Assembly: GCA_964601615.1 (NCBI GenBank)
Contig: CAZRNZ010000002.1
Coordinates: 73,339-137,338 of the forward strand
Origin: an uncultured Candidatus Saccharibacteria bacterium
GTDB lineage: Bacteria > Patescibacteriota > Minisyncoccia > Phycocordibacterales > UBA918
Direction: 5' to 3'
Length of the DNA stretch: 64,000 nucleotides
The position numbers and the translations under genes were made by a program. Numbering within the stretch: position 1 is the first letter of the stretch; each line of letters starts with the position of its first letter. Under the pieces are notes generated by a model. The model searched no databases. It saw only the letters and a program-made list of their open reading frames with translations, and had not been told where the DNA came from. Below are positions 2,898-46,076 of the stretch, piece after piece.

Positions 2898-4139
2898 CTA
2901 AACCAACACTACTAAATTCTTCTTACCTCTCCGAAGAAGAGCGATATCAGTAAAATCAATTACAAAATTTAAGTCTACGATTTTTTCACCAGAGAAAATT
3001 ACAGCTCCACTAGAAATAAACTCTCGAGCTTCACGCTTACTTGAAGCCAGATTAGTTTCAACCAACACATCAACCAAATCTTTTCCTTTTGCACCAGCAA
3101 AAGTCGGAGCATTTTGCTTCAACATACTTTTTTCAGCATCTGATAAATCAGAAAGTCCTACATCACCAAACAAAATTCCAGAAACCAAAGATGCTGCTTC
3201 AGTATTTTCACTTCCATGAACAAAACTAGTCACTTCTGCTGCCAATCTTTTTTGAGCAAATCTTTGACCCATAGAAGCCTCGTGTTCATTTTTGATAGAT
3301 TCAATTTCTTCAAGACTGATGAAAGTATAAATCTTTAGGTAGTCAATGACTTTTTCATCCTCAACATTCAACCAGAATTGATAAAACTGATAAGGAGTGG
3401 TTTTTTCTCCCGAGAGCCAAACAGCATTGCCCTCGCTTTTACCAAACTTCTTTCCCGAAGCATCGGTAATCAATGGAAAAGAGAAAGCAAAAACTTCTTT
3501 CCCTTCCCTTTTACGAATCAAATCAACACCAGAAAGCACATTGGTCCACTGGTCGCTGCCACCAAGCTGTAAATCAACTCCATAACGGCGGTTTAGTTCC
3601 CAATAATCATAAGCCTGCAAAAGTGAGTAGGTAAACTCTGTATAAGAAATACTATCATCAGGATTGTCCAACCTTCTTTTAATCAAATCACGTTTGATAA
3701 GCTCATTAACAGTAAAATGTTTTCCAACATCTCGTAAAAAAGGAATTAACTTTACCTCACGCAGCCACTCTGCGTTATTAACCATAACCAGACCAGATTC
3801 TGCGCCCAACATACTATCCAACTGCAATCTAATCGCTTCTGCGTTTTGATCAATAATATCTTCAGACAACAAAACTCGCTCTCCCTTTTCTTTTGGATCA
3901 CCAATCATTCCAGTACCACCGCCCACTAGCAAAACTGGTTTATGTCCACCTAAGACCAAGCGCTTCATTAAGACAATCCAGGCCAAATGTCCGACATGGA
4001 GTGAGTCGGCTGTTGGATCAGAGCCAATGTAAACAGTTCTTTGTTCTGCAAAAATCTTCTCTGGATCGGCTGAAGAATCATATATCAGCCCTCTTTGTCT
4101 TAATTCATCTACCAATTTCATACCCATCGAGTTTAACAT
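2898..4139 (-). CDS. tyrS: Tyrosyl-tRNA synthetase
   Basis: HIGH motif (HVGHL), KMSKS motif (KFGKS) and a C-terminal S4-like domain. The ORF-track N-terminal extension was trimmed to an internal Met (alternative start at 4121, MKLVDEL). Confidence 0.92.
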   Translation of the reverse strand: MLNSMGMKLVDELRQRGLIYDSSADPEKIFAEQRTVYIGSDPTADSLHVGHLAWIVLMKRLVLGGHKPVLLVGGGTGMIGDPKEKGERVLLSEDIIDQNAEAIRLQLDSMLGAESGLVMVNNAEWLREVKLIPFLRDVGKHFTVNELIKRDLIKRRLDNPDDSISYTEFTYSLLQAYDYWELNRRYGVDLQLGGSDQWTNVLSGVDLIRKREGKEVFAFSFPLITDASGKKFGKSEGNAVWLSGEKTTPYQFYQFWLNVEDEKVIDYLKIYTFISLEEIESIKNEHEASMGQRFAQKRLAAEVTSFVHGSENTEAASLVSGILFGDVGLSDLSDAEKSMLKQNAPTFAGAKGKDLVDVLVETNLASSKREAREFISSGAVIFSGEKIVDLNFVIDFTDIALLRRGKKNLVVLV

Positions 4140-4184
4140 AAAGTTGTTAATTACTGTTATTATGGCAATATTACGAAATTTAAA

Positions 4185-6452
4185 ATGACAAACAAACAAA
4201 TCAAGCCTAAAAAGAAAGAAAGTTGGATAAAAGAGAGGTTGTCCGACATGGCAATTTTAGTGCTAGTTATTGGTTTTATTGGTGCTGGTGCCCTACTTAT
4301 TTTCATATCTACTCTGGACATTCCAGATCTTTCTTCTTTTGACCAAAGAAGAGTTTTACAATCCACAAAAATCTATGACCGCACCGGAGAAATCGTTCTT
4401 TATGACCTAAACCAAGATGTAAAAAGAACTGCTGTTCCCTATGAAAACATCTCTCACCATATCAAAAACGCCACTATCGCCATCGAAGACGATACCTTCT
4501 TTTCTCACTTAGGAGTTCGTCCCCTCGCTATTGTTAGAGCAGGAATTCAAAACCTTATTGGTGGTGATTTACGTGGACAAGGAGGATCAACAATCACACA
4601 ACAAGTAATCAAAAACGCTCTTCTTAGTCGAGAAAAATCATATATAAGAAAAATGAAGGAAGCAATTCTTGCTCTCCGTCTAGAACAAGTTTTAAGTAAG
4701 GAAGAAATTCTTTGGTATTACTTAAATGAAAATCCTTACGGAGGAACTATATATGGTGTTGAGGAAGCTAGTCGTGCTTTCTTCAACAAATCTGCAGCCG
4801 AAGTTACTCTGGCTGAATCTGCTTACCTAGCTGCAATTCCACAAGCCCCCACCTACTACTCCCCGTACGGAAATAATCGTGATGCTCTTGAGGTAAGAAA
4901 AAACCGCGTCTTGGATAGAATGGAAGATTTGGGTTTTATTTCTGAAGAAGAATACAATAACGCTAAAGCTGAAACAGTGGAATTTTCTAGTGCTGCTAAT
5001 ACAGGAATTAAGGCACCCCACTTTGTAATGTATATAAGAGAATACTTGGCAGAAAAATACGGTGAGGAAGACCTGGCAACTCGTGGCCTCAAGGTAATAA
5101 CGACTCTTGATTATGATTTACAATCTGATGCAGAAGAAATCGTAAAAGAGTACGCAATAAAAAACGAAACACAGTTCAATGCTTCAAACGCCTCCCTAGT
5201 AGCGATGGACCCAAAATCTGGTGACATTCTCACAATGGTTGGTTCTCGTGACTATTTTGATGAAAATATTGACGGTAATTACAATATTGCCCTAGCAATG
5301 CGTCAACCAGGTTCTGCTATCAAGCCTTTTATTTATGCTAAAGCTTTTGAAAAAGGATATACGCCAGCCACCACCCTGTTTGATGTGCAGACACAATTTT
5401 CAACATCCTGTGACCCAGGAAACACAACGTCTGAAGACGGGTGTTATTCACCAAACAACTACGACAATGCTTTCCGAGGTCCTGTTTCTATCAGAAGCGC
5501 TTTAGCTCAATCACTTAACATTCCAGCAGTAAAAACTCTTTATTTGGCTGGAATGCAAGATTCTATAAAATTAGCTCGTGACGCTGGATTGGCAACTCTT
5601 ACTGATTGGCGTAGATATGGACTTACTCTTGTGCTTGGAGGTGGTGAAGTAAGGTTAATCGACATGACTGAAGCATATGGAGTTTTTGCTAATGAAGGAT
5701 TAAAAATGCCTATCAGAAGCATTATTCGTGTTGAAGACAATACTGGTAATGTTTTAGAAAATAATGAACAACTTCCGGAAGGACAACGAGTTATGGACAG
5801 AGATGCTGCCTTACAAATTTCTGACATACTTTCTGATAACGTAGCCAGAACCCCTTTATATGGTGCAAACTCACTTCTTTATTTTGGTGAAGGAATTGAT
5901 GTTGCAGCAAAAACAGGTACCACAAACGATCGTCGTGATGCTTGGATATTTGGCTATACACCAAACATTGTAGTAGGAGCTTGGGCTGGAAATAACGGCA
6001 ATCAATCAATGAATGAAATTTCAGGGTTAATCATTTCTCCTCTATGGCGAGCGTTTATGGATGTAGCGATGGCAAAACTAGATCAAGAGCAATTCCCTAA
6101 CCCAGCCCCGATTCCAGACGATATTAAACCAGTTTTGCGCTCTAATGGCATGGTTGTAGACGCAACATCACTTGTTGGAAACTTAGACGGAAACACTAAT
6201 GTTGGAGACCTTCTAAACGCTATGTATGACAACACACATACAATCTTACACTTTGTAGATAAAGACAATCCTCGTGGACCATACCCTTCCAACCCTGCTC
6301 GCGATCCGCAGTATTATTTATGGGAGTACGGAGTAACTGTTTGGAAAAATAATCAATTCGGCAGAAATAATAATTCTGAAGGAGAGGGAGACCAAAACTC
6401 ATCTGAAGAACAAGAAAATTCTGAAGGAGAAGATATTGGAAGTAGACAATAA
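4185..6452 (+). CDS. Class A penicillin-binding protein (glycosyltransferase + transpeptidase, PBP1A family)
   Basis: N-terminal TM anchor, GT51 motif IEDDTFFSHLGV, transpeptidase motifs SAIK (SxxK) and KTGTT, and an acidic low-complexity C-terminal tail. Confidence 0.9.
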   Translation: MTNKQIKPKKKESWIKERLSDMAILVLVIGFIGAGALLIFISTLDIPDLSSFDQRRVLQSTKIYDRTGEIVLYDLNQDVKRTAVPYENISHHIKNATIAIEDDTFFSHLGVRPLAIVRAGIQNLIGGDLRGQGGSTITQQVIKNALLSREKSYIRKMKEAILALRLEQVLSKEEILWYYLNENPYGGTIYGVEEASRAFFNKSAAEVTLAESAYLAAIPQAPTYYSPYGNNRDALEVRKNRVLDRMEDLGFISEEEYNNAKAETVEFSSAANTGIKAPHFVMYIREYLAEKYGEEDLATRGLKVITTLDYDLQSDAEEIVKEYAIKNETQFNASNASLVAMDPKSGDILTMVGSRDYFDENIDGNYNIALAMRQPGSAIKPFIYAKAFEKGYTPATTLFDVQTQFSTSCDPGNTTSEDGCYSPNNYDNAFRGPVSIRSALAQSLNIPAVKTLYLAGMQDSIKLARDAGLATLTDWRRYGLTLVLGGGEVRLIDMTEAYGVFANEGLKMPIRSIIRVEDNTGNVLENNEQLPEGQRVMDRDAALQISDILSDNVARTPLYGANSLLYFGEGIDVAAKTGTTNDRRDAWIFGYTPNIVVGAWAGNNGNQSMNEISGLIISPLWRAFMDVAMAKLDQEQFPNPAPIPDDIKPVLRSNGMVVDATSLVGNLDGNTNVGDLLNAMYDNTHTILHFVDKDNPRGPYPSNPARDPQYYLWEYGVTVWKNNQFGRNNNSEGEGDQNSSEEQENSEGEDIGSRQ

Positions 6453-33255: not shown

Positions 33256-34320
33256 ATGAGTCAAAAAAAGCTTAAAGCAAAATTTTTTAGATTCAAAAGG
33301 GATTTAACAAAACCTTTTCTGCCTAAAAATTTTGATTTACCGATCAGATCTTTATATGGCGCTGTACTCTTTTCAGCTACCTTGTTTACTGTTTTAACAG
33401 TTTTTACGACTGCTACACTCACGTTTCCCTTAGCTGAACCTGAAATACCGGTAGCACCTTTCCCTGTTGGGGTTGATCCAAATAGTAAAACGATTACAGA
33501 AAATCCTGAACTTGACCATTTTATTGCTAGCTCTGGTAGAGCCAGGTGGCATTTCCCTTCAATCGTTCCTACCGGAAAATTTGCACAATTTATTACTAAA
33601 TTATCCAGAACGTCTTGGTACCAGTTAGCTATTCCTGGAGGCCGTCTATTGGTGATTTTCCCAGGAGAAAGGAAGGAAGAAGTTGCTAAAAACTTTGGTG
33701 ATATTTTACGATGGGATTCTACTGAGAGAAAGGAGTTTTTAAGATTGGTTACAGATTCTGCGCCTGAATTAAATGATGGACAGTTTTTTCCAGAAAGTTA
33801 TTTGGTAGCAGTTGATGCTTCACCAGAAGATGTCGCAAAGCTGGTGATTGAACGTTTTCAGGCAGAAGTCGTTGCGCGCTATGATACAAAAACTGAGGAA
33901 TATCTTCCTATGAGGGAAGCAATTATCATTGCTTCCCTACTCGAGAGAGAAGCTTACGATTTTACTGATATGCGAGAAATATCAGGAGTTATTTGGAATC
34001 GCTTATTCATAGACATGAATTTGCAGCTAGACGCAACCTTGCAATATGCTAGAGGGACTAGGGCAGATTCTTCCAAATGGTGGCCAGTACCAACTCCGGC
34101 AGATAAATATATTGAGTCACCATACAATACATATAAGTATAAAGGTCTACCGCCTGATCCTATTGCCAACCCTTCACTCGAGTCAATTGTTGCTGCACTT
34201 AATCCAATTCAGACAGATTGTCTATTTTATTTTCACGCTAGTGGTGGAAGGTTCTATTGTTCAGAAACCTACGAGGAGCATGTAAGAAAGTTGCGTGAGG
34301 TTTTTGGTCAGGGAAGATAA
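33256..34320 (+). CDS. mltG: Endolytic murein transglycosylase MltG (YceG family)
   Basis: N-terminal TM and a YceG-like domain with YKGLPPDPIANPSLESIVAAL near the C-terminus. Confidence 0.85.
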   Translation: MSQKKLKAKFFRFKRDLTKPFLPKNFDLPIRSLYGAVLFSATLFTVLTVFTTATLTFPLAEPEIPVAPFPVGVDPNSKTITENPELDHFIASSGRARWHFPSIVPTGKFAQFITKLSRTSWYQLAIPGGRLLVIFPGERKEEVAKNFGDILRWDSTERKEFLRLVTDSAPELNDGQFFPESYLVAVDASPEDVAKLVIERFQAEVVARYDTKTEEYLPMREAIIIASLLEREAYDFTDMREISGVIWNRLFIDMNLQLDATLQYARGTRADSSKWWPVPTPADKYIESPYNTYKYKGLPPDPIANPSLESIVAALNPIQTDCLFYFHASGGRFYCSETYEEHVRKLREVFGQGR

Positions 34321-34322
34321 TT

Positions 34323-34351
34323 TGACTTTATTTCTGAAAGGTCTAGAATAC
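34323..34351 (+). promoter_or_regulatory. Sigma-70-like promoter for the downstream ORF-free transcript
   Basis: TTGACT, 16-nt spacer, TAGAAT. Confidence 0.5.
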
Positions 34352-34357
34352 GAATTG

Positions 34358-34685
34358 CCAAAAAGGTGGGAGGTTGCAAAACTGTGAAGATCAACCGTTT
34401 CCCGAAATAGCGTCACCATCTACAATAGATGAGGACAACCTCAAGGCAAAGGGAAAATCGGAGGGAGGAATGCTCCATATTCGTGAAGGTCCCGAAGTTC
34501 TTTAGTTCAGAAAGGTTTATATAACCCACATCGCTCACAGCAACGAAGTGGCAATAGGTCTGAATATTATTTCGGACACGGTTGAAACCGAGACGCCCAA
34601 AGTGCTGCCCAGGGTTTTGTGCACCTGAGTGCAAAATACATGCACCGACCCCGACGATTTTATATTCGTCGGGGTCTTTTTTATT
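34358..34685 (+). ncRNA. Candidate structured ncRNA, family unassigned, about 320 nt between promoter and terminator
   Basis: No plus-strand ORF of 60 aa or more. Consensus promoter upstream and a strong terminator (gaccccgacgattttatattcgtcggggtc plus a T-run) at 34640-34685. The minus-strand 73-aa ORF looks non-genic. Confidence 0.45.
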
Positions 34686-34738
34686 TTATATTGACTAGTT
34701 TTGTATTTATTCTAGGATGATATCCAGATTAGTGATTA

Positions 34739-35023
34739 GTGGAGATTTTCATGTTTACAGAAGACGATCTGCTAAGTTTTTCTAAAGAAGACAGGTTTGA
34801 TACTTATCGTAAATTTTTCACTGCTTATATTTCTGCAGAAGAACTTGATAGCGAAAAGTTGCTTCGTAAATATAGTGGAATTTTATCTAGACTCGAGACT
34901 GTTTGGCTGCTTTCCGTCGCCGATATAAATTGTCTAAAAAACGAAGTGCTAGATAAGAGATCAAGGTCAAGTTTTTTATTGAATGAGTTTGTTGCTGATA
35001 TCGATGAGACTACAATTCATTAA
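34739..35023 (+). CDS. Small hypothetical protein
   Basis: 94-aa ORF followed by a strong terminator. Confidence 0.4.
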   Translation: MEIFMFTEDDLLSFSKEDRFDTYRKFFTAYISAEELDSEKLLRKYSGILSRLETVWLLSVADINCLKNEVLDKRSRSSFLLNEFVADIDETTIH

Positions 35024-35026
35024 TAC

Positions 35027-35059
35027 AAAAGGGCCGGAAGCGAAGCTTCCGGCCCTTTT
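35027..35059. terminator. Bidirectional terminator
   Basis: aaaagggccggaagcgaagcttccggccctttt. Confidence 0.7.
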
Positions 35060-35067
35060 CTTATCCC

Positions 35068-35133
35068 CTACTTCTTTGCCTTGTCTTTCTTTGGTTTCTT
35101 CTTCTCCTTTTTGTGAGTTACTTTTTCTGCCAT
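35068..35133 (-). CDS. Possible 21-aa lysine-rich micro-ORF (MAEKVTHKKEKKKPKKDKAKK)
   Basis: ATG to stop, ending right at the bidirectional terminator. Very low complexity; weak. Confidence 0.15.
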   Translation of the reverse strand: MAEKVTHKKEKKKPKKDKAKK

Positions 35134-35323
35134 ATATTAATTTATTATATTAAATAATTGTACAAACCTGCTTAAAATATTTTGGTTTATTTAGTTTTCA
35201 TTGGTCGAGTATTATCTCTTACTAATTACTTAAATCATATCATGAGAATTATTTTGCATAATTGGGTATAAGTGAATTTGTGTCATATGTTCTACATATA
35301 GATAAATTTGTTAAACTATCTTT

Positions 35324-36115
35324 ATGAAAATATACTCGTGGAACGTTAACGGAATTAGGGCGGTAGATAAAAAAGGATTATTTACCCCTTTTATTATGAA
35401 ACATCAGCCTGATGTGTTGTGTTTGCAAGAAACCAAGGCTTCAAAGGAACAAAGTACGGTAGATTTACCGGAATATGATGAATACTGGAGTTCCGCAGAA
35501 AAGAAAGGTTATTCAGGGACTGCTATTTTTACCAAAATTGCACCCAAAAGTGTCATATATGGTCTTCCGGAAGATGTGAAACAAGAATTTTCCTTATCAG
35601 ATGAATATGGAGATAGTTCTACAGAAGGTCGTGTAACCACAATTGAGCTAGAAAATATCTATGTAGTTTCAGTTTATACACCAAATGCTAAAGACGATTT
35701 GAGTAGATTACCTGTTAGACAAGAGTGGGATAAAGCATTTCTTGCCTATATGAAACAACTTCAGTCTGAGAAACCGGTAGTTTTTTGCGGTGATTTGAAC
35801 GTGGCACATACCGAACTCGATTTAGCTAGACCAAAAGAGAACAAAGGAAAGAAGGGTTTTACGATAGAAGAACGTGAAGGAATCGAGGAAATTATAGAAG
35901 CTGGTTTCACAGATTCATTCAGATTATTTAATAAAGAAAACGGTAACTACACTTGGTGGTCACACTTTGCCAAAGCTAGAGAAAGAAATGTTGGTTGGAG
36001 GATAGATTATGCAATGGTTTCGAAAGATTTGATTCCTTTAGTTAAAAAATCATCCATACATGATGATGTATTTGGTAGTGACCACTGCCCTGTTTCTGTA
36101 GAAATATCTATATAG
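35324..36115 (+). CDS. xth: Exodeoxyribonuclease III (AP endonuclease)
   Basis: MKIYSWNVNGIRA N-terminus, catalytic LCLQETK and DHCPV motifs of the EEP family. Confidence 0.92.
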   Translation: MKIYSWNVNGIRAVDKKGLFTPFIMKHQPDVLCLQETKASKEQSTVDLPEYDEYWSSAEKKGYSGTAIFTKIAPKSVIYGLPEDVKQEFSLSDEYGDSSTEGRVTTIELENIYVVSVYTPNAKDDLSRLPVRQEWDKAFLAYMKQLQSEKPVVFCGDLNVAHTELDLARPKENKGKKGFTIEEREGIEEIIEAGFTDSFRLFNKENGNYTWWSHFAKARERNVGWRIDYAMVSKDLIPLVKKSSIHDDVFGSDHCPVSVEISI

Positions 36116-36119
36116 GACA

Positions 36120-36695
36120 ATAATGTCTTATATAAAAGACAGCTTATCCACAGTTATTCACATTGATGTCCTTTACATAATTTGTAAAGGACATAGAATA
36201 TATTCAGGCCCAGAGAGGGCAGGCATCGCAAGATCCTAAAGAGTTCATTCCACAAGGTTAGAAACCTCCAAAATTCTAACAACGTTCATAACACATTCCC
36301 ACCTAAAGAGTATGTAAAAAATAAAACATTTAAGTACTCAAGTTAAAGAATTCATGATCGAGCTTGTGAGCCGCAAAGAGGGCCTAAGACATTGGTCCCT
36401 CCTTCCGGCTCGCTTGCTTGAAAAAAGTAAAAGTGAATTCTTAGGAATCTACTAAAGATTCCACGCACAGGAGAGAAGTTTATTAGGTACAAAAGTAAGA
36501 GTCGTTAGGTAAATTAGGATCACTCAGTCTTTAGACATAGAGTTCCATCTGAGGCATTTACACCTCGTATAAAAATCCTAAAGGGACTCGAAATAAGTAC
36601 ATTCTGTATGTCGTGAGACATATATCAAGGCCTGGAGAGGTTGGTAGACAAGTTTATTGTCTTCCTACCCCTCCAGGCCTTTTTTATTTATAAAC
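36120..36695 (+). ncRNA. ORF-free, structure-rich region ending in a plus-strand terminator; candidate long ncRNA, family unassigned
   Basis: No ORF of 60 aa or more in any frame over 36116-37015. Perfect hairpin at 36157-36185, a long nested helix at 36366-36424, and a terminator ggcctggagagg...cctctccaggcc plus TTTTTTATTT at 36634-36695. Confidence 0.35.
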
Positions 36696-40141: not shown

Positions 40142-40807
40142 ATGATTCGAAATGAAGAAAAGTACCAAAAAGCAACATATTTTCGTAAGCGTGGTTTTTC
40201 TTATACAGAAATAGCTAAATTGGTGGGTGTTTCCCGTGGAACATTAAGTAATTGGTTTGCTAAAAAAAGCTTTTCTAAAAAGGTTAAAGTTGATAATGAA
40301 ATAAAGACAAGAAAAGAAAATGTTAAAAGAATCTCACTTTTAAATAAGGCCCGTCAAACAGAAAAAAATAAAAAGCATAAAGAAGTTCTTAAATCAGCCA
40401 ATACTGAGTATAAAAATTATCGCCATCTTCCCCACTTTATGGCGGGAATAGCCCTATATGTGGCCGTGGGTGATTTAGGTAACAATAACAATATTAGATT
40501 ATCTGATTCTAGAATAGATATTCATAAGATCTTTATAAGGTTTTTAGTAGATTTTCTTGGGATGGATAAAAAAGATATCAAATGTTGGTTAGCAATTGAT
40601 TCTAAAGAAAAGGAATCTAAGGAAGTTGCTGTTTGGTCTAAGTTATTAAAGATATCTTCTGAAAATTTCTATAAAAGTCAGGTCATAAGTAATATTAATC
40701 AATCAACATTGCGAAAAACCATAGGAAATACTATAATCGTAAACGCTACTTTGAAGCAGAAGCTCAATAGATGGGTAGAGTTGGCCTCAAAAGAGTTAGT
40801 TAAATAA
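40142..40807 (+). CDS. Lys-rich protein with an N-terminal helix-turn-helix
   Basis: RKRGFSYTEIAKLVGVSRGTLSNWF HTH at residues 15-40. The rest has no recognisable domain. The stop abuts tRNA-Gly(GCC). Confidence 0.5.
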   Translation: MIRNEEKYQKATYFRKRGFSYTEIAKLVGVSRGTLSNWFAKKSFSKKVKVDNEIKTRKENVKRISLLNKARQTEKNKKHKEVLKSANTEYKNYRHLPHFMAGIALYVAVGDLGNNNNIRLSDSRIDIHKIFIRFLVDFLGMDKKDIKCWLAIDSKEKESKEVAVWSKLLKISSENFYKSQVISNINQSTLRKTIGNTIIVNATLKQKLNRWVELASKELVK

Positions 40808-40809
40808 AA

Positions 40810-40880
40810 GCGGCCATGGTTAAGTGGTATAATGAGTCCTTGCCAAGGATTAGTGGAGAGTTCGATTCTCTCTGGCCGCA
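40810..40880 (+). tRNA. tRNA-Gly (anticodon GCC)
   Basis: Acceptor GCGGCCA/TGGCCGC, anticodon stem AGTCC/GGATT with loop TTGCCAA, T-arm GAGAG-TTCGATT-CTCTC. Confidence 0.8.
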
Positions 40881-40924
40881 CATATGAAAAACCCCCTTAT
40901 AGGGGGTTTTTCATATGTGCGGCC
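40874..40924. repeat. 23-bp perfect inverted repeat (hairpin) whose 5-prime arm overlaps the last 7 nt of tRNA-Gly(GCC)
   Basis: ggccgcacatatgaaaaaccccc ttat gggggtttttcatatgtgcggcc. The arms contain the CATATGAAA(AA)C half of the 14-bp palindrome family. Confidence 0.8.
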
Positions 40925-40960
40925 AGAGGAAGATACTTCCTGTCTCTCCGTAAAAAATCA

Positions 40961-41050
40961 AAAAGCGGAGTGTTGAACTTTTGCCTTATAAGCAAAAGTT
41001 CCGCGGTTTTGGGCAGCGGGTACTTTTGAGCAAAGCGAATTAGGAACTTT
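40961..41050 (+). repeat. tRNA-linked repeat, copy B (rearranged or degenerate)
   Basis: Shares aaagcggag(t/c)gttg, ccgcggttttgggcagcgggtac (like cgcggttttcccgtgctcgcac) and gagcaaagcgaattaggaactt with copy C. Confidence 0.55.
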
Positions 41051-41096
41051 TGTTGCTTCTCTCTAACATGTCTGCCAACACTTCCTTTTCCCTAGT

Positions 41097-41823
41097 GTTT
41101 CATATGAAACAAGTTATCCACAAAGTTAAATGTTCTGTCCTAGATTTTGAGACTGTGTATAACTAAGGGGACAAGTGGATTAAGGACTTTCTGTTTTGTT
41201 CTTAATATTTGTAAATATGGCTATAAATAAGGGTCTTTTAAGACTTTTATGCCCTATACAGTAATCTTATACGTTTCACGTGAAACATCTAGATATATGT
41301 TTCATATGAAACGTTACAAATATAATGCACTTGAGAGTGAGGTTATAATCAGATTAGTGACCAATAAAAAGAATAATAAAATAATGGGTAATTTAGGTGA
41401 AGATATTGCCGAAAAATACCTTAGAAATAAGGGTTTTATTATTTTAGAAAGAAACTATTTAAGAAAATGGGGAGAAATAGATATTGTTACACGTGGAACC
41501 GGACTTGAATGGAAAAATTCTGATGTTTCATATGAAACATCAGAAAAAGTACATTTTGTGGAAGTTAAGAGTGTTTCATATGAAACAAAAGAGGAATTAG
41601 CTTGGGCTGTTACACATGAAACATGGCGACCAGAAGAAATGGTTCATTTTCATAAAATGAAACAAATAAGAAAAGTCGTTGAATCTTGGTTGATTGAAAA
41701 TAATTGGGAAGGGGATATTCAGATTGACGTCATTGCAGTCAGGATCGTTTCACGTGAAAAGTATGCAACAGTAAAATATATACCAAACATAATCTTAGAT
41801 TAATGTGTCACGTGTAACATAAC
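41097..41823. repeat. Array of about 8 copies of a 14-bp palindrome GTTTCA(TA/CG)TGAAAC, irregularly spaced, in and flanking the YraN-like gene
   Basis: Perfect copies at 41097, 41273, 41299, 41525 (extended 20-bp palindrome gatgtttcatatgaaacatc) and 41573. One-mismatch copies at 41609 and 41747. Degenerate copies at about 41480 and 41806. Confidence 0.85.
41384..41803 (+). CDS. yraN: YraN/UPF0102-family predicted endonuclease (restriction-endonuclease-like fold) with repeat-encoded insertions
   Basis: GNLGEDIAEKYLRNKGFIILERNYLRKWGEIDIV ... VHFVEVKS ... IDVIAV matches the YraN core motifs. The ORF-track start at 41249 adds 45 aa that contain two palindromes, so the start was set at the Met preceding the GxxGE motif. 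Confidence 0.6.
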   Translation: MGNLGEDIAEKYLRNKGFIILERNYLRKWGEIDIVTRGTGLEWKNSDVSYETSEKVHFVEVKSVSYETKEELAWAVTHETWRPEEMVHFHKMKQIRKVVESWLIENNWEGDIQIDVIAVRIVSREKYATVKYIPNIILD

Positions 41824-41860
41824 TAAGTGGCTAATAATATGGATATTATAGGTATGTCCT

Positions 41861-41906
41861 TTATAGAAGACGTTTATGTCTTTTATAAAGGACATACATT
41901 TTGATT
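41861..41906. repeat. Hairpin repeat ATGTCCTTTAYA...TRTAAAGGACAT, copy 2 (copy 1 at 36157-36185)
   Basis: gtatgtcctttata gaagacgtttatgtcttt tataaaggacatac. Copy 1 is atgtcctttaca taattt gtaaaggacat. Confidence 0.7.
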
Positions 41907-41947
41907 AATACGACCTTCAGTTTGAATTAATTTTGTCCACATAAATA

Positions 41948-41981
41948 AAGCGCTTTTAAACTTTAGTTTAAAAGCGCTTTA
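41948..41981 (-). terminator. Terminator downstream of tRNA-Pro
   Basis: aaagcgcttttaaactttagtttaaaagcgcttt. Confidence 0.65.
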
Positions 41982-41988
41982 TTTGTTG

Positions 41989-42059
41989 TCGGGGAGCCGG
42001 GAATCGAACCCGGACCACACGGTCCCAAACCGCGTACACTACCACTATGCTACACCCCG
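41989..42059 (-). tRNA. tRNA-Pro (anticodon UGG)
   Basis: Acceptor CGGGGTG/CTCCCCG with one T-T mismatch, anticodon stem CGCGG/CCGTG with loop TTTGGGA, T-arm CCGGG-TTCGATT-CCCGG. Confidence 0.7.
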
Positions 42060-42086
42060 AGGAAGTGAGAGTCGTGATATTTGTTT

Positions 42087-42146
42087 TCTCAGAGTTCAAA
42101 CGAAAAAAGGGGAGTTTCCTCACATTTTTTCGTTTGAACTCTGAGA
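42087..42146. promoter_or_regulatory. 22-bp perfect inverted repeat in the divergent tRNA-Pro / sigma-factor promoter region
   Basis: tctcagagttcaaacgaaaaaa [16-nt loop] ttttttcgtttgaactctgaga. Confidence 0.6.
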
Positions 42147-42311
42147 TAGCAAGCTTTGCTTGCAAAATATCAAGACCGAATAACGAAAGGGTGAAAGCTT
42201 GCTTACACCACTGATACCTTTTGATTAACTTCCGCAAATTCATCAACAAACTTGCGACAAAATCATATCACTTTTTCTGAAAAAAGCGAGACTTGAATAA
42301 GATTATGTGCA

Positions 42312-45337: not shown

Positions 45338-45430
45338 TAGATAAATTTAAGATGATAAAGGAAAAAAGTAAAACAATATCTTTGTGGGTATTGGAAAAAT
45401 GGTTGGCTTTGTGGTAATATCGCTCTGCCT

Positions 45431-45501
45431 GCGGGCATAGTTTAGTGGTAAAACGTCTGCCTTCCAAGCAGAAGATCGGAGTTCGATTCCCCGTGCCCGC
45501 A
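45431..45501 (+). tRNA. tRNA-Gly (anticodon UCC)
   Basis: Acceptor GCGGGCA/TGCCCGC, D-stem GTTT/AAAC, anticodon stem TCTGC/GCAGA with loop CTTCCAA, T-loop TTCGATT. Upstream promoter TTGGAA-18-TAATAT with an extended -10. Confidence 0.8.
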
Positions 45502-45510
45502 CTAGTAAAC

Positions 45511-45540
45511 AAAAAGAACACACTTTTGTGTGTTCTTTTT
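45511..45540 (+). terminator. Terminator after tRNA-Gly(UCC)
   Basis: aaaaagaacacacttttgtgtgttcttttt. Confidence 0.65.
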
Positions 45541-45593
45541 GTACGTGTGTGGGCAACAGTAAGCGCCACTTCGGCGCTTACGTGGGGAATCGA

Positions 45594-45704
45594 AAGGCGG
45601 AGCGTTGTATTTTTCTCTTTTCCTAGAGAAAAATACCGCGAGCCGGGGCAGCAAGTCCTTGTGAACAAAGTGAATTAGGAACTTGCGCGGTTTTCCCGTG
45701 CTCG
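45594..45704 (+). repeat. tRNA-linked repeat, copy C (longest)
   Basis: Matches copy A over the 55-nt core and copy B over the flanking modules. Has an internal 9-bp hairpin tttttctct...agagaaaaa. Confidence 0.7.
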
Positions 45705-45710
45705 CACAAT

Positions 45711-45788
45711 AAAAAACCGACAACTCTTTGAGTTGTCGGTTTTTCTGTATTTATTACTCAAAACAAAAGACCTCTTTTGAGGTCTTTT
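45711..45788. terminator. Two tandem hairpin terminators downstream of hup
   Basis: aaaaaccgacaactctttgagttgtcggttttt and aaaagacctcttttgaggtctttt. Confidence 0.65.
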
Positions 45789-45803
45789 GTTGCATCGCTG
45801 TCA

Positions 45804-46076
45804 TTATTTCACAGCATCCTTAAGTGCTTTGGCGGCACGGAACTTAGGTACGCGCATTGCTGGAACTTCAATTGATTCTCCAGTGCGAGGATTGCGAGCT
45901 GTACGAGCGTCGCGTGACTTGGTAGAGAAAATACCTAGACCAGCGATAGATACTTCCTGACCACTCTTAAGTGTATCAACAACACTGTTGATTACTGTTT
46001 CAACAGCTCTTTCTGCATCAGCTTTTGTTATGTCTAATGATTCGTGTACTTTGTTGATTATGTCTGCCTTATTCAT
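45804..46076 (-). CDS. hup: DNA-binding protein HU
   Basis: 90 aa; MNKADII...[28 protein letters not shown] is the HU arm signature. Confidence 0.93.
   Translation of the reverse strand: [90 protein letters not shown]

Follow-up and report, generated by a model that had tools for sequence, protein, structure and literature searches.

Type I small RNAs (sRNAs) of 3′ untranslated regions (3′ UTRs) have promoters of their own, and the enterobacterial examples DapZ, which follows dapB, and MicL, which lies within and after cutC, are close in layout to the locus described here. A second group of interest is formed by the dual-function sRNAs SgrS/SgrT, RNAIII/delta-hemolysin and SR1/SR1P, which contain a small open reading frame (ORF). 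To our knowledge, almost no riboregulators have been characterised in Patescibacteria, the genomes of which are tiny, and we know of no Hfq or ProQ context in this group. The present analysis concerns a 64-kb stretch of contig CAZRNZ010000002.1 (64,000 nucleotides (nt), hereafter the window), in which a promoter directly after mltG, a segment free of long ORFs and an intrinsic terminator together delimit a small transcription unit on the plus strand (hereafter the unit). By comparison with its homolog in a second locus, L072, the unit is a real, conserved, rare and dispensable small transcription unit that falls in the broad bacterial class of sRNAs and mini-ORFs. It is read here, tentatively and with confidence just short of even, as a lineage-restricted sRNA gene of the 3′-UTR type with its own promoter, possibly a dual-function one.

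The unit resembles DapZ and MicL in that its promoter is located just where the upstream gene ends, its terminator would be shared with the mRNA of that gene, and a conserved module is located near the 3′ end, before the terminator. It differs from them in having no sequence or Rfam relationship to either, in being about 330 nt long, which is much longer than DapZ or MicL-S, and in that its transcript is a predicted one; transcription, translation and all function of the unit are inferred from sequence. With the dual-function sRNAs it shares a length of a few hundred nt, a short ORF led by a Shine-Dalgarno (SD) sequence and separate conserved noncoding elements, whereas its ORF of 11 codons is shorter than that of any of them and no homology to them is found.

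Promoter, terminator and conservation of the unit

The gene mltG (yceG) occupies 33256-34320 on the plus strand (Pfam YceG, E 8e-49; stop codon 34318-34320) and is followed by the unit, by a gene of 90-94 amino acids (aa) (34739/34751-35023, plus strand) and, farther downstream, by an exonuclease III-like gene (exoIII, 35324-36115). The proteins nearest to the window MltG belong to metagenome-assembled genomes labelled Paceibacterota, Kaiserbacteria or Nomurabacteria, and the host genome is patescibacterial (candidate phyla radiation, CPR) and Paceibacteria/Kaiserbacteria-like. The parts of the unit and their counterparts in L072 are as follows.

34322-34349, plus strand: sigma-70-type promoter, −35 TTGACT at 34322-34327, 16-nt spacer, −10 TAGAAT at 34344-34349 (10/12 match)
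34356-34455, plus strand: variable 5′ domain, about 100 nt long here and about 67 nt in L072, unalignable except UCAACCG at 34391-34397
34460-34469, plus strand: SD-like GGAGGGAGGA, the GGAGG of which ends 5 nt before ATG (GGGAGGATGAA before ATG in L072)
34470-34505, plus strand: candidate 11-codon mini-ORF, ATG CTC CAT ATT CGT GAA GGT CCC GAA GTT CTT TAG, translated as MLHIREGPEVL and stop
34514-34526, plus strand: short hairpin GGUU-UAUAU-AACC (L072 equivalent GAGCU-AUUCAAA-AGCUC)
34536-34562, plus strand: block 1, CACAGCAACG-AAGTGGCAATAGGTCTG, 27/27 identical to L072, which has a 1-nt insertion (T)
34558-34577, plus strand: hairpin GUCUGAA-UAUUAU-UUCGGAC, 7 pairs (L072 GUCUGG-ACUAGU-CUAGAC)
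34575-34602, plus strand: block 2, GACACGGTTGAAACCGAGACGCCCAAAG, 25/28 identical to L072
34629-34645, plus strand: small hairpin GUGCA-AAAUACA-UGCAC before the terminator (L072 GGGU-AUAUUC-ACCC, same place)
34647-34689, plus strand: intrinsic terminator, stem GACCCCGACG/CGTCGGGGTC at 34647-34676 with 11 pairs (8 G-C) and an 8-nt loop, then TTTTTTATTTT

The TTGACT-16-TAGAAT promoter proposed in the initial annotation is present, its earlier coordinates being 1-2 nt off; it begins 2 nt past the mltG stop codon, and transcription is inferred to start at about 34356-34358. In L072 the corresponding promoter, TTGACT-16-TAAAAT (4074-4101), begins 6 nt past the stop codon of that mltG, so that position and hexamer spacing are conserved in both genomes while the sequence of the spacer differs. 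Taken alone, the promoter is not above chance, as TTGAC-N17-19-TANAAT occurs once in the 64-kb window against 1.09 expected, and promoter-like sites number 8 in 3.5 kb against 8.8 in shuffles. Terminator-like sites, in contrast, are enriched (5 versus 2.1 in shuffles), and that of the unit, already described as strong in the initial annotation, is the strongest of the five. Because a T-run follows its stem on the plus strand only, the orientation of the unit is fixed. The L072 terminator (4361-4394) keeps 11/11 pairs, two of them through compensatory changes and two with a change on one side. Promoter and terminator, the marks of an independent sRNA gene, are thus both conserved in the ortholog (two genomes), and the unit would measure about 330 nt in the window and about 290 nt in L072. 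No terminator is found between mltG and the unit, and the unit sequence should therefore also form the 3′ UTR of the mltG mRNA.

The homolog was identified in a comparison of mltG neighbourhoods from 70 genome loci, 80 metagenome loci and 11 loci retrieved via exact protein (about 165 loci in total), which were searched with nhmmer, blastn, a two-sequence hidden Markov model (HMM) and a covariance model named R1 (about 1 Mb of loci). The nhmmer and blastn searches gave a single true homolog, L072 (JGI contig Ga0206107_1000055 of sample 3300020137; E 2e-16), which also lies directly after mltG and the MltG of which is 68% identical to that of the window; in addition, they returned L071, an identical Logan contig present in run SRR16798010. 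Other R1 matches, in L011, L079, L117 and L141, proved to be terminators or coding sequence and were rejected. The HMM and the covariance model found nothing further in the same loci. The sequence signatures of the conserved blocks were AGCAACG(N0-1)AAGTGGCAATAGG and GACACGGTTNAAACCGAGA.

Between the window and L072 the identity of the unit is approximately 71-77%, as against 70-74% for the flanking coding DNA, and neutral DNA at the divergence represented by 68% MltG identity would not be expected to align in this way. Conserved blocks alternate with unalignable stretches, and insertions or deletions of 1, 2 and 8 nt separate the blocks, so that no long coding frame is retained on either strand; in particular, block 1, with its 1-nt insertion in L072, is not coding. 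The presence of an ortholog in which promoter, terminator and blocks are kept raises the observation above chance, and the conservation argues for a function and for the greater part of the unit being noncoding.

Consistent with the claim of the initial annotation that no plus-strand ORF reaches 60 aa, the longest one between promoter and terminator starts with TTG and spans 34374-34505 (43 aa). The minus-strand ORF of 73 aa that was also reported does exist (34413-34634), and it is not conserved in L072, where no gene is called within the unit; a Pfam scan of seven proteins gave no match for this ORF or for the 94-aa ORF. Frames longer than the mini-ORF (43 aa from the TTG at 34374; 37-50 aa in L072) were rejected, because only their last 11 residues align, the TTG of L072 is the −35 box itself, and the TTG of the window has no suitable spacing to GGAGG. 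A pseudogene was likewise rejected, since blastx of 34251-35350 against ORFs of at least 50 aa from 70 related loci detected the C-terminus of MltG only.

The unit is rare, being found in 2 of the approximately 165 related loci. According to the MltG tree, it is absent from the sister of the window MltG, P0004/L153 (79% identical), and from both sisters of the L072 MltG, P0010/L156 and P0011/L157, and it is also absent from P0003, P0005, P0006, P0007 and P0008. These genomes have a bidirectional terminator immediately after mltG. In L072 such a terminator (4416-4446) lies about 20 nt past the terminator of the unit and is followed by a convergent MacB-like gene; it looks homologous to the terminator after the small gene of the window (about 35030-35060), which would place the unit between mltG and the ancestral terminator.

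This patchy distribution in the clade bears on a rather improbable alternative, in which the region is a non-functional or DNA-level leftover, such as the decayed margin of a variable island between mltG and exoIII, a recombination site or a protein-binding site, that owes its likeness in the two genomes to ancestry or transfer. It agrees with this alternative that the cargo between mltG and exoIII differs in every genome examined, that no thermodynamic signal is found (see below) and that block 2 is a perfect 12-bp palindrome, CGGTTTAAACCG, in L072. On the other hand, blocks that are 27/27 and 25/28 identical stand beside unalignable stretches at an MltG identity of 68%, the promoter hexamers are maintained and the changes in the terminator are compensatory. 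Moreover, the blastx search revealed no gene remnant among the ORFs of the 70 related loci, blastn against phage and plasmid collections gave no match, and scans of viral contigs for the conserved blocks gave 0 matches.

Mini-ORF, conserved blocks and folding

The longest conserved block of the unit consists of GGAGG and the mini-ORF, which had been overlooked in the initial annotation. The L072 counterpart reads ATG TCT CAT ATC CGT GAA GGC CCC CAA GTT CTT TAA (MSHIREGPQVL and stop), with 7 differences in 36 nt between the two sequences. Outside codon 2, three of the four differences are silent third-position changes, including that from TAG to TAA, and the other two frames would show more replacements or a stop. 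The spacing from SD to ATG is identical in both genomes, and alignability stops at the stop codon of the mini-ORF. SD sequence, start, frame and stop are thus all conserved and the substitutions are codon-like, as judged from two sequences and partly confounded with a stem. In a collection of 5.8 billion proteins, no predicted protein shares three 5-residue words with the translations of the ORF.

The stem in question pairs UCGGAGG of the SD region with GUCCCGA of codons 7-9; six pairs are kept; in one of them C-G is replaced by G-C, a compensatory change, and in another G-U has become G-C. Such pairing would occlude the ribosome-binding site, although the SD region has alternative local pairings in predicted folds. 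These changes form the basis of an unlikely alternative that nevertheless carries real weight, namely that the RNA is a purely noncoding sRNA in which GGAGG, ATG and stop are by-products of a conserved stem-loop and are not translated. The change from GAA to CAA is exactly compensated by an upstream change from C to G, and GGT to GGC is the change that turns G-U into G-C; furthermore, combinations of SD and ATG arise by chance in the genome, and a hydrophilic peptide of 11 residues has no obvious role. Against a stem-loop as the sole constraint, the stop codon is retained via TAG to TAA, the ATT-to-ATC change, a silent one, falls within a loop, and conservation ends at the stop with the SD-to-ATG distance kept.

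Downstream of the mini-ORF, blocks 1 and 2 form the same three-way junction in independent predicted folds of the two sequences. GCC(C) of block 2 pairs with GGC of block 1 to close the predicted junction, and these closing pairs are invariant. Block 1 contains a hairpin, (U/C)CAC/GUGG, with four pairs, one of which is changed on one side, together with an invariant loop AGCAACG(U)AA and the linker CAAUAG. The hairpin at 34558-34577 retains all its pairs, one of them through a compensatory change (A-U to G-C) and two with a change on one side only. Block 2, with the consensus GACACGGTT(G/T)AAACCGAGA(C/A)GCCC(A/T)AAG, contains the hairpin CGGU-UGAA-ACCG (34579-34590), which corresponds to the DNA palindrome of L072 mentioned above. 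The hairpin at 34514-34526 is kept in position and not in sequence, which with two sequences could be chance. The 5′ domain is predicted to fold as an extended hairpin in each genome, with the terminal helix UUGCC/GGCAA in the window and ACCUUG/CAAGGU in L072. Pairing of its UCAACCG (34391-34397) with CGGUUGA (34579-34585) would give 7 bp in the window and 5 bp plus a mismatch in L072, where the minimum free energy (MFE) fold does not use it.

When the pairs of five helices were counted with the aid of RNAalifold, 31/31 were paired in both sequences, whereas 28-53% were paired after the 3′ partner columns had been slid by 1-3 positions. Four pairs are compensatory (one in the SD stem, one in the hairpin at 34558-34577 and two in the terminator). 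The alignment of relatives for covariation that the initial annotation recommended was limited to the one homolog found, and the resulting support for the structure is suggestive and short of statistical proof.

The thermodynamic signal is confined to the 3′ end. The whole region folds with z=-3.9, equally on both strands, and this value is due to the terminator and the small adjacent hairpin; the core without the terminator (34352-34640) gives z=-0.89, with 40/200 shuffles as good, and the region does not stand out when MFE values across the window are corrected for G+C (z=-0.4). The core value gives no support, on thermodynamic grounds alone, for a strongly structured RNA. Of the unassigned structured RNA first proposed, the boundaries set by promoter and terminator and the lack of a long ORF have stood, with conservation in L072 added to them.

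The preferred reading, an sRNA gene of the 3′-UTR type, can be summarized in the following model. Transcription from a sigma-70-type promoter immediately 3′ of the mltG stop codon would yield an RNA of about 330 nt, ending at the strong intrinsic terminator, and the same sequence would double as the 3′ UTR of the mltG mRNA. The RNA would consist of a variable 5′ hairpin domain followed by two conserved modules. In the first module, comprising GGAGG and the 11-codon ORF, the middle of the ORF may pair with GGAGG and so gate the access of ribosomes. The second would be a compact three-way junction with the invariant loop AGCAACGAA and the linker CAAUAG; this domain is possibly the working part of a trans-acting riboregulator that works either through base pairing or by binding a protein. 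The mini-ORF may either be translated, as in a dual-function sRNA, or load ribosomes that control the folding or stability of the RNA. When start regions were screened for targets with RNAduplex, all of the predicted duplexes were long, interrupted and uninformative.

Several observations weigh against this model. Its absence from the closest relatives suggests that the unit is dispensable or mobile, it borders the variable interval between mltG and exoIII, and it has only two members; with two sequences, 34/500 shuffles match the covariation measures. The core folds no better than shuffles, nor than other parts of the genome. As for the mini-ORF, GGAGG-N4-8-ATG occurs 9 times against 4.3 expected and leads to long ORFs in 3/9 cases, and is thus not a specific start signal. 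In addition, the replacement of E by Q (GAA to CAA) is at the same time the compensatory partner in the SD stem, so that coding and structural constraint are inseparable at this position. Should the unit be a true sRNA with a mini-ORF and a junction domain, it would be among the few concrete candidates for a riboregulator in Patescibacteria; its rarity, its dispensability and the lack of an inferred target give it small immediate value.

Comparison with known RNA families and leaders

No match for the region was obtained with Rfam 15 at gathering thresholds, and at E<=10 on 601 nt only terminator-shaped sRNA models appeared, far below their cut-offs. The near-matches were STnc240, NsiR1, His_leader and DUF3800-I; those to STnc240 and NsiR1 are explained by the hairpin before the terminator together with the terminator, and that to His_leader (21.7 bits versus a gathering threshold of 49) lies on the wrong, minus strand and is terminator-driven. 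The L072 ortholog likewise gave nothing beyond terminator-type near-matches at E<=10. Of the outcomes that the initial annotation had named as speaking against an RNA gene, the lack of a covariance-model match was thus found, yet the region is conserved in L072; its suggestion of some other sRNA fits a unit that has no Rfam family and a conserved promoter and terminator.

A highly divergent housekeeping RNA, that is, RNase P RNA, 6S RNA, transfer-messenger RNA (tmRNA) or signal recognition particle (SRP) RNA, is barely conceivable. The length of the unit is comparable to that of RNase P RNA, and a few short strings are similar: the two that had been quoted as RNase P-like are indeed present (GGAGGGAGGAATGCTCC at 34460-34476 and ACGGTTGAAACCGAGAC at 34578-34594), GGAGGAAUGCUCCAUA resembles GAGGAAAGUCCGGGCUCCAUA of the P4 region, and the ORF has the size of a tag peptide. 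RNase P RNA is defined by a P1-P4 core with the conserved strands GAGGAAAGUCC and ACAGAA..CGGCUUA. The models RF00010 and RF00011, however, gave no match at gathering thresholds or at E<=10 in the window or in L072, and AGUCC of P4 is absent, so that the divergent RNase P RNA offered as a candidate in the initial annotation was rejected. An essential single-copy gene such as that of RNase P RNA should, moreover, be present in all close relatives, whereas the unit does not follow mltG in the nearest of them and was not found elsewhere in the approximately 1 Mb of loci; the same absence is unlike what is expected of any housekeeping RNA.

The 6S-like candidate fared no better, since Rfam (RF00013) gave no match at E<=10 in either genome; 6S RNA forms a rod, about 180-200 nt long, that is closed by a stem and opened in the middle by a large bubble, and the long-range 5′/3′ pairing predicted for the window is not reproduced in L072. 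A tmRNA combines a tRNA-like domain made of its 5′ and 3′ ends with a tag reading frame, whereas the 3′ end of the unit is an intrinsic terminator without T-arm or CCA; neither ARAGORN, which found only four tRNAs in the window, nor Rfam detected a tmRNA. SRP RNA was rejected in the absence of an Rfam match even at E<=10. The unit thus represents none of the RNase P, 6S, tmRNA and SRP genes of the genome, nor is it the leader of the downstream ORFan considered next, and its folding signal is that of the terminator.

In the leader interpretation, translation of an 11-codon leader peptide would determine whether transcription passes the terminator at 34647-34676 and reaches downstream genes, here the small gene, an ORFan of 90 aa (94 aa with the earlier start). 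The layout of promoter, SD-led short ORF, hairpins, intrinsic terminator and co-directional gene resembles that of the leader-peptide attenuators trpL, pheL and hisL and of the Rfam leader families, and several C-rich segments could pair alternatively with the G-rich SD region. We nevertheless regard a cis-acting leader or attenuator as improbable. The unit is conserved in L072 although it is followed there by a bidirectional terminator and the convergent MacB-like gene, which leaves nothing to regulate, and because of this convergent gene the unit is not a leader; in the window, the 90-aa ORFan has its own TTGACT-16-TAGGAT site. Unlike the attenuators, the unit lacks a conserved downstream gene and its peptide lacks a run of regulatory codons, and no conserved anti-terminator pairing was found. 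For want of a conserved co-directional downstream gene, riboswitch, T-box and leader classes were all rejected, and the long leader for the 94-aa gene that had been suggested was dropped with them. The absence of a T-box, on which the initial annotation was right, is borne out by Rfam at E<=10.

The middle of the mini-ORF also invites comparison with arrest peptides. Its I-R-E-G-P is one residue off the I-R-A-G-P of SecM, does not vary between the two genomes and is placed close to the C-terminus of this very small ORF. In contrast to arrest peptides, only 6-7 residues would have been made when the motif is reached, and no Sec or YidC gene lies downstream. RAPP-like arrest peptides are described as having a core of R-(A/G)-P-P, RAGP or RAPG upstream of a gene for protein localization (PMC12992588). 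A peptide of this type was rejected for the unit, as REGP is not among the cores in the part of that description available to us and the downstream gene is lacking. By analogy, I-R-E-G-P might act as an arrest sensor, such that pausing of the ribosome on codons 7-9, the segment otherwise paired with the SD site of the ORF, would remodel the junction and yield an arrest-gated sRNA that is unlinked to a downstream gene, an idea that we regard as highly speculative and doubtful.

Neighbouring elements in the window

The synteny upstream of mltG is constant across the clade (NYN, rpsO, SurA-like, csp, mltG), whereas the interval between mltG and exoIII (window 34321-35323) is a hot spot of variable content, with the following cargo.

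L153: none
L156: a 174-aa gene and a 119-aa gene
L157: a gene of the metallo-beta-lactamase fold (lactamase_B-fold)
L003: two genes
L072/L162: a three-gene MacAB-like efflux operon
Window: an ORFan gene

The ORFan of the window extends from ATG 34751 to a stop at 35023 on the plus strand, with a GGAG SD sequence ahead of it; its promoter-like site occupies 34691-34718, and the terminator that follows it is bidirectional. Its sole match among the 5.8 billion proteins is itself, Pfam and PADLOC gave no match, and PHROGs gave matches only at E>0.05. Relatives lack this gene, which therefore seems to have been inserted recently, between the sRNA unit and the ancestral terminator of mltG. In a distant locus, L080 (MltG 50% identical), about 1 kb directly 3′ of mltG (4047-5094) has no ORF of at least 70 aa.

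Within the same interval, an unannotated lysine-rich ORF of 21-22 codons, MAEKVTHKKEKKKPKKDKAKK, is located at 35068-35133 on the minus strand and occurs in six related genomes (seven including the window). The pattern M[GA][EK][RKG]V[AT]H[KR]KEKKKPKKDK... is found in L001, L153, L156, L157/L158 and L162, always between the mltG-side terminator and exoIII and on the strand opposite to mltG. This ORF probably encodes a real small basic protein.

Beyond exoIII, a stretch of about 490 nt without an ORF (36203-36690, plus strand) is strongly conserved in DNA sequence across 6-7 related loci, in each of which it follows exoIII; its homologs are in L157 (E 4.5e-81), L003, L004/L076, L156, L007 and L073. 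RNAalifold with five sequences gives 90 pairs, 23 of them with compensatory changes. Among its elements are a hairpin with a GNRA cap, the helix GUGAGCCG...CGGCUCGC, a strong terminator at about 36630-36690 and an unpaired stretch of about 45 invariant nt, ACCUCCAAAAUCUAACAACGUUCAUAACACAUUCCCAC, which contains an anti-SD-like CCUCC. A promoter, TTTACA-16-TAGAAT (36172-36199), lies inside two operator-like palindromes, TGTCTTATATAAAAGACA and TGTCCTTTAC..GTAAAGGACA, in the region 36120-36200. No Rfam match was found for 36203-36690, which on this evidence is a much stronger candidate for a novel large noncoding RNA than the mltG-adjacent unit.

Four other stretches of the window (45361-45850, 40741-41090, 41791-42280 and 1-350) fold far better than the rest, with G+C-corrected z values of -3 to -4.9; at 45431, for example, the folding energy is -134 kcal/mol per 280 nt. 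Rfam detected at these stretches only tRNA and weak sRNA-like matches at 45710-45827 on the minus strand. Group I introns have been reported in tRNA genes of Patescibacteria in a 2026 paper (PMC13011429). The strong folding of the four stretches exceeds what the single tRNA genes located there explain.

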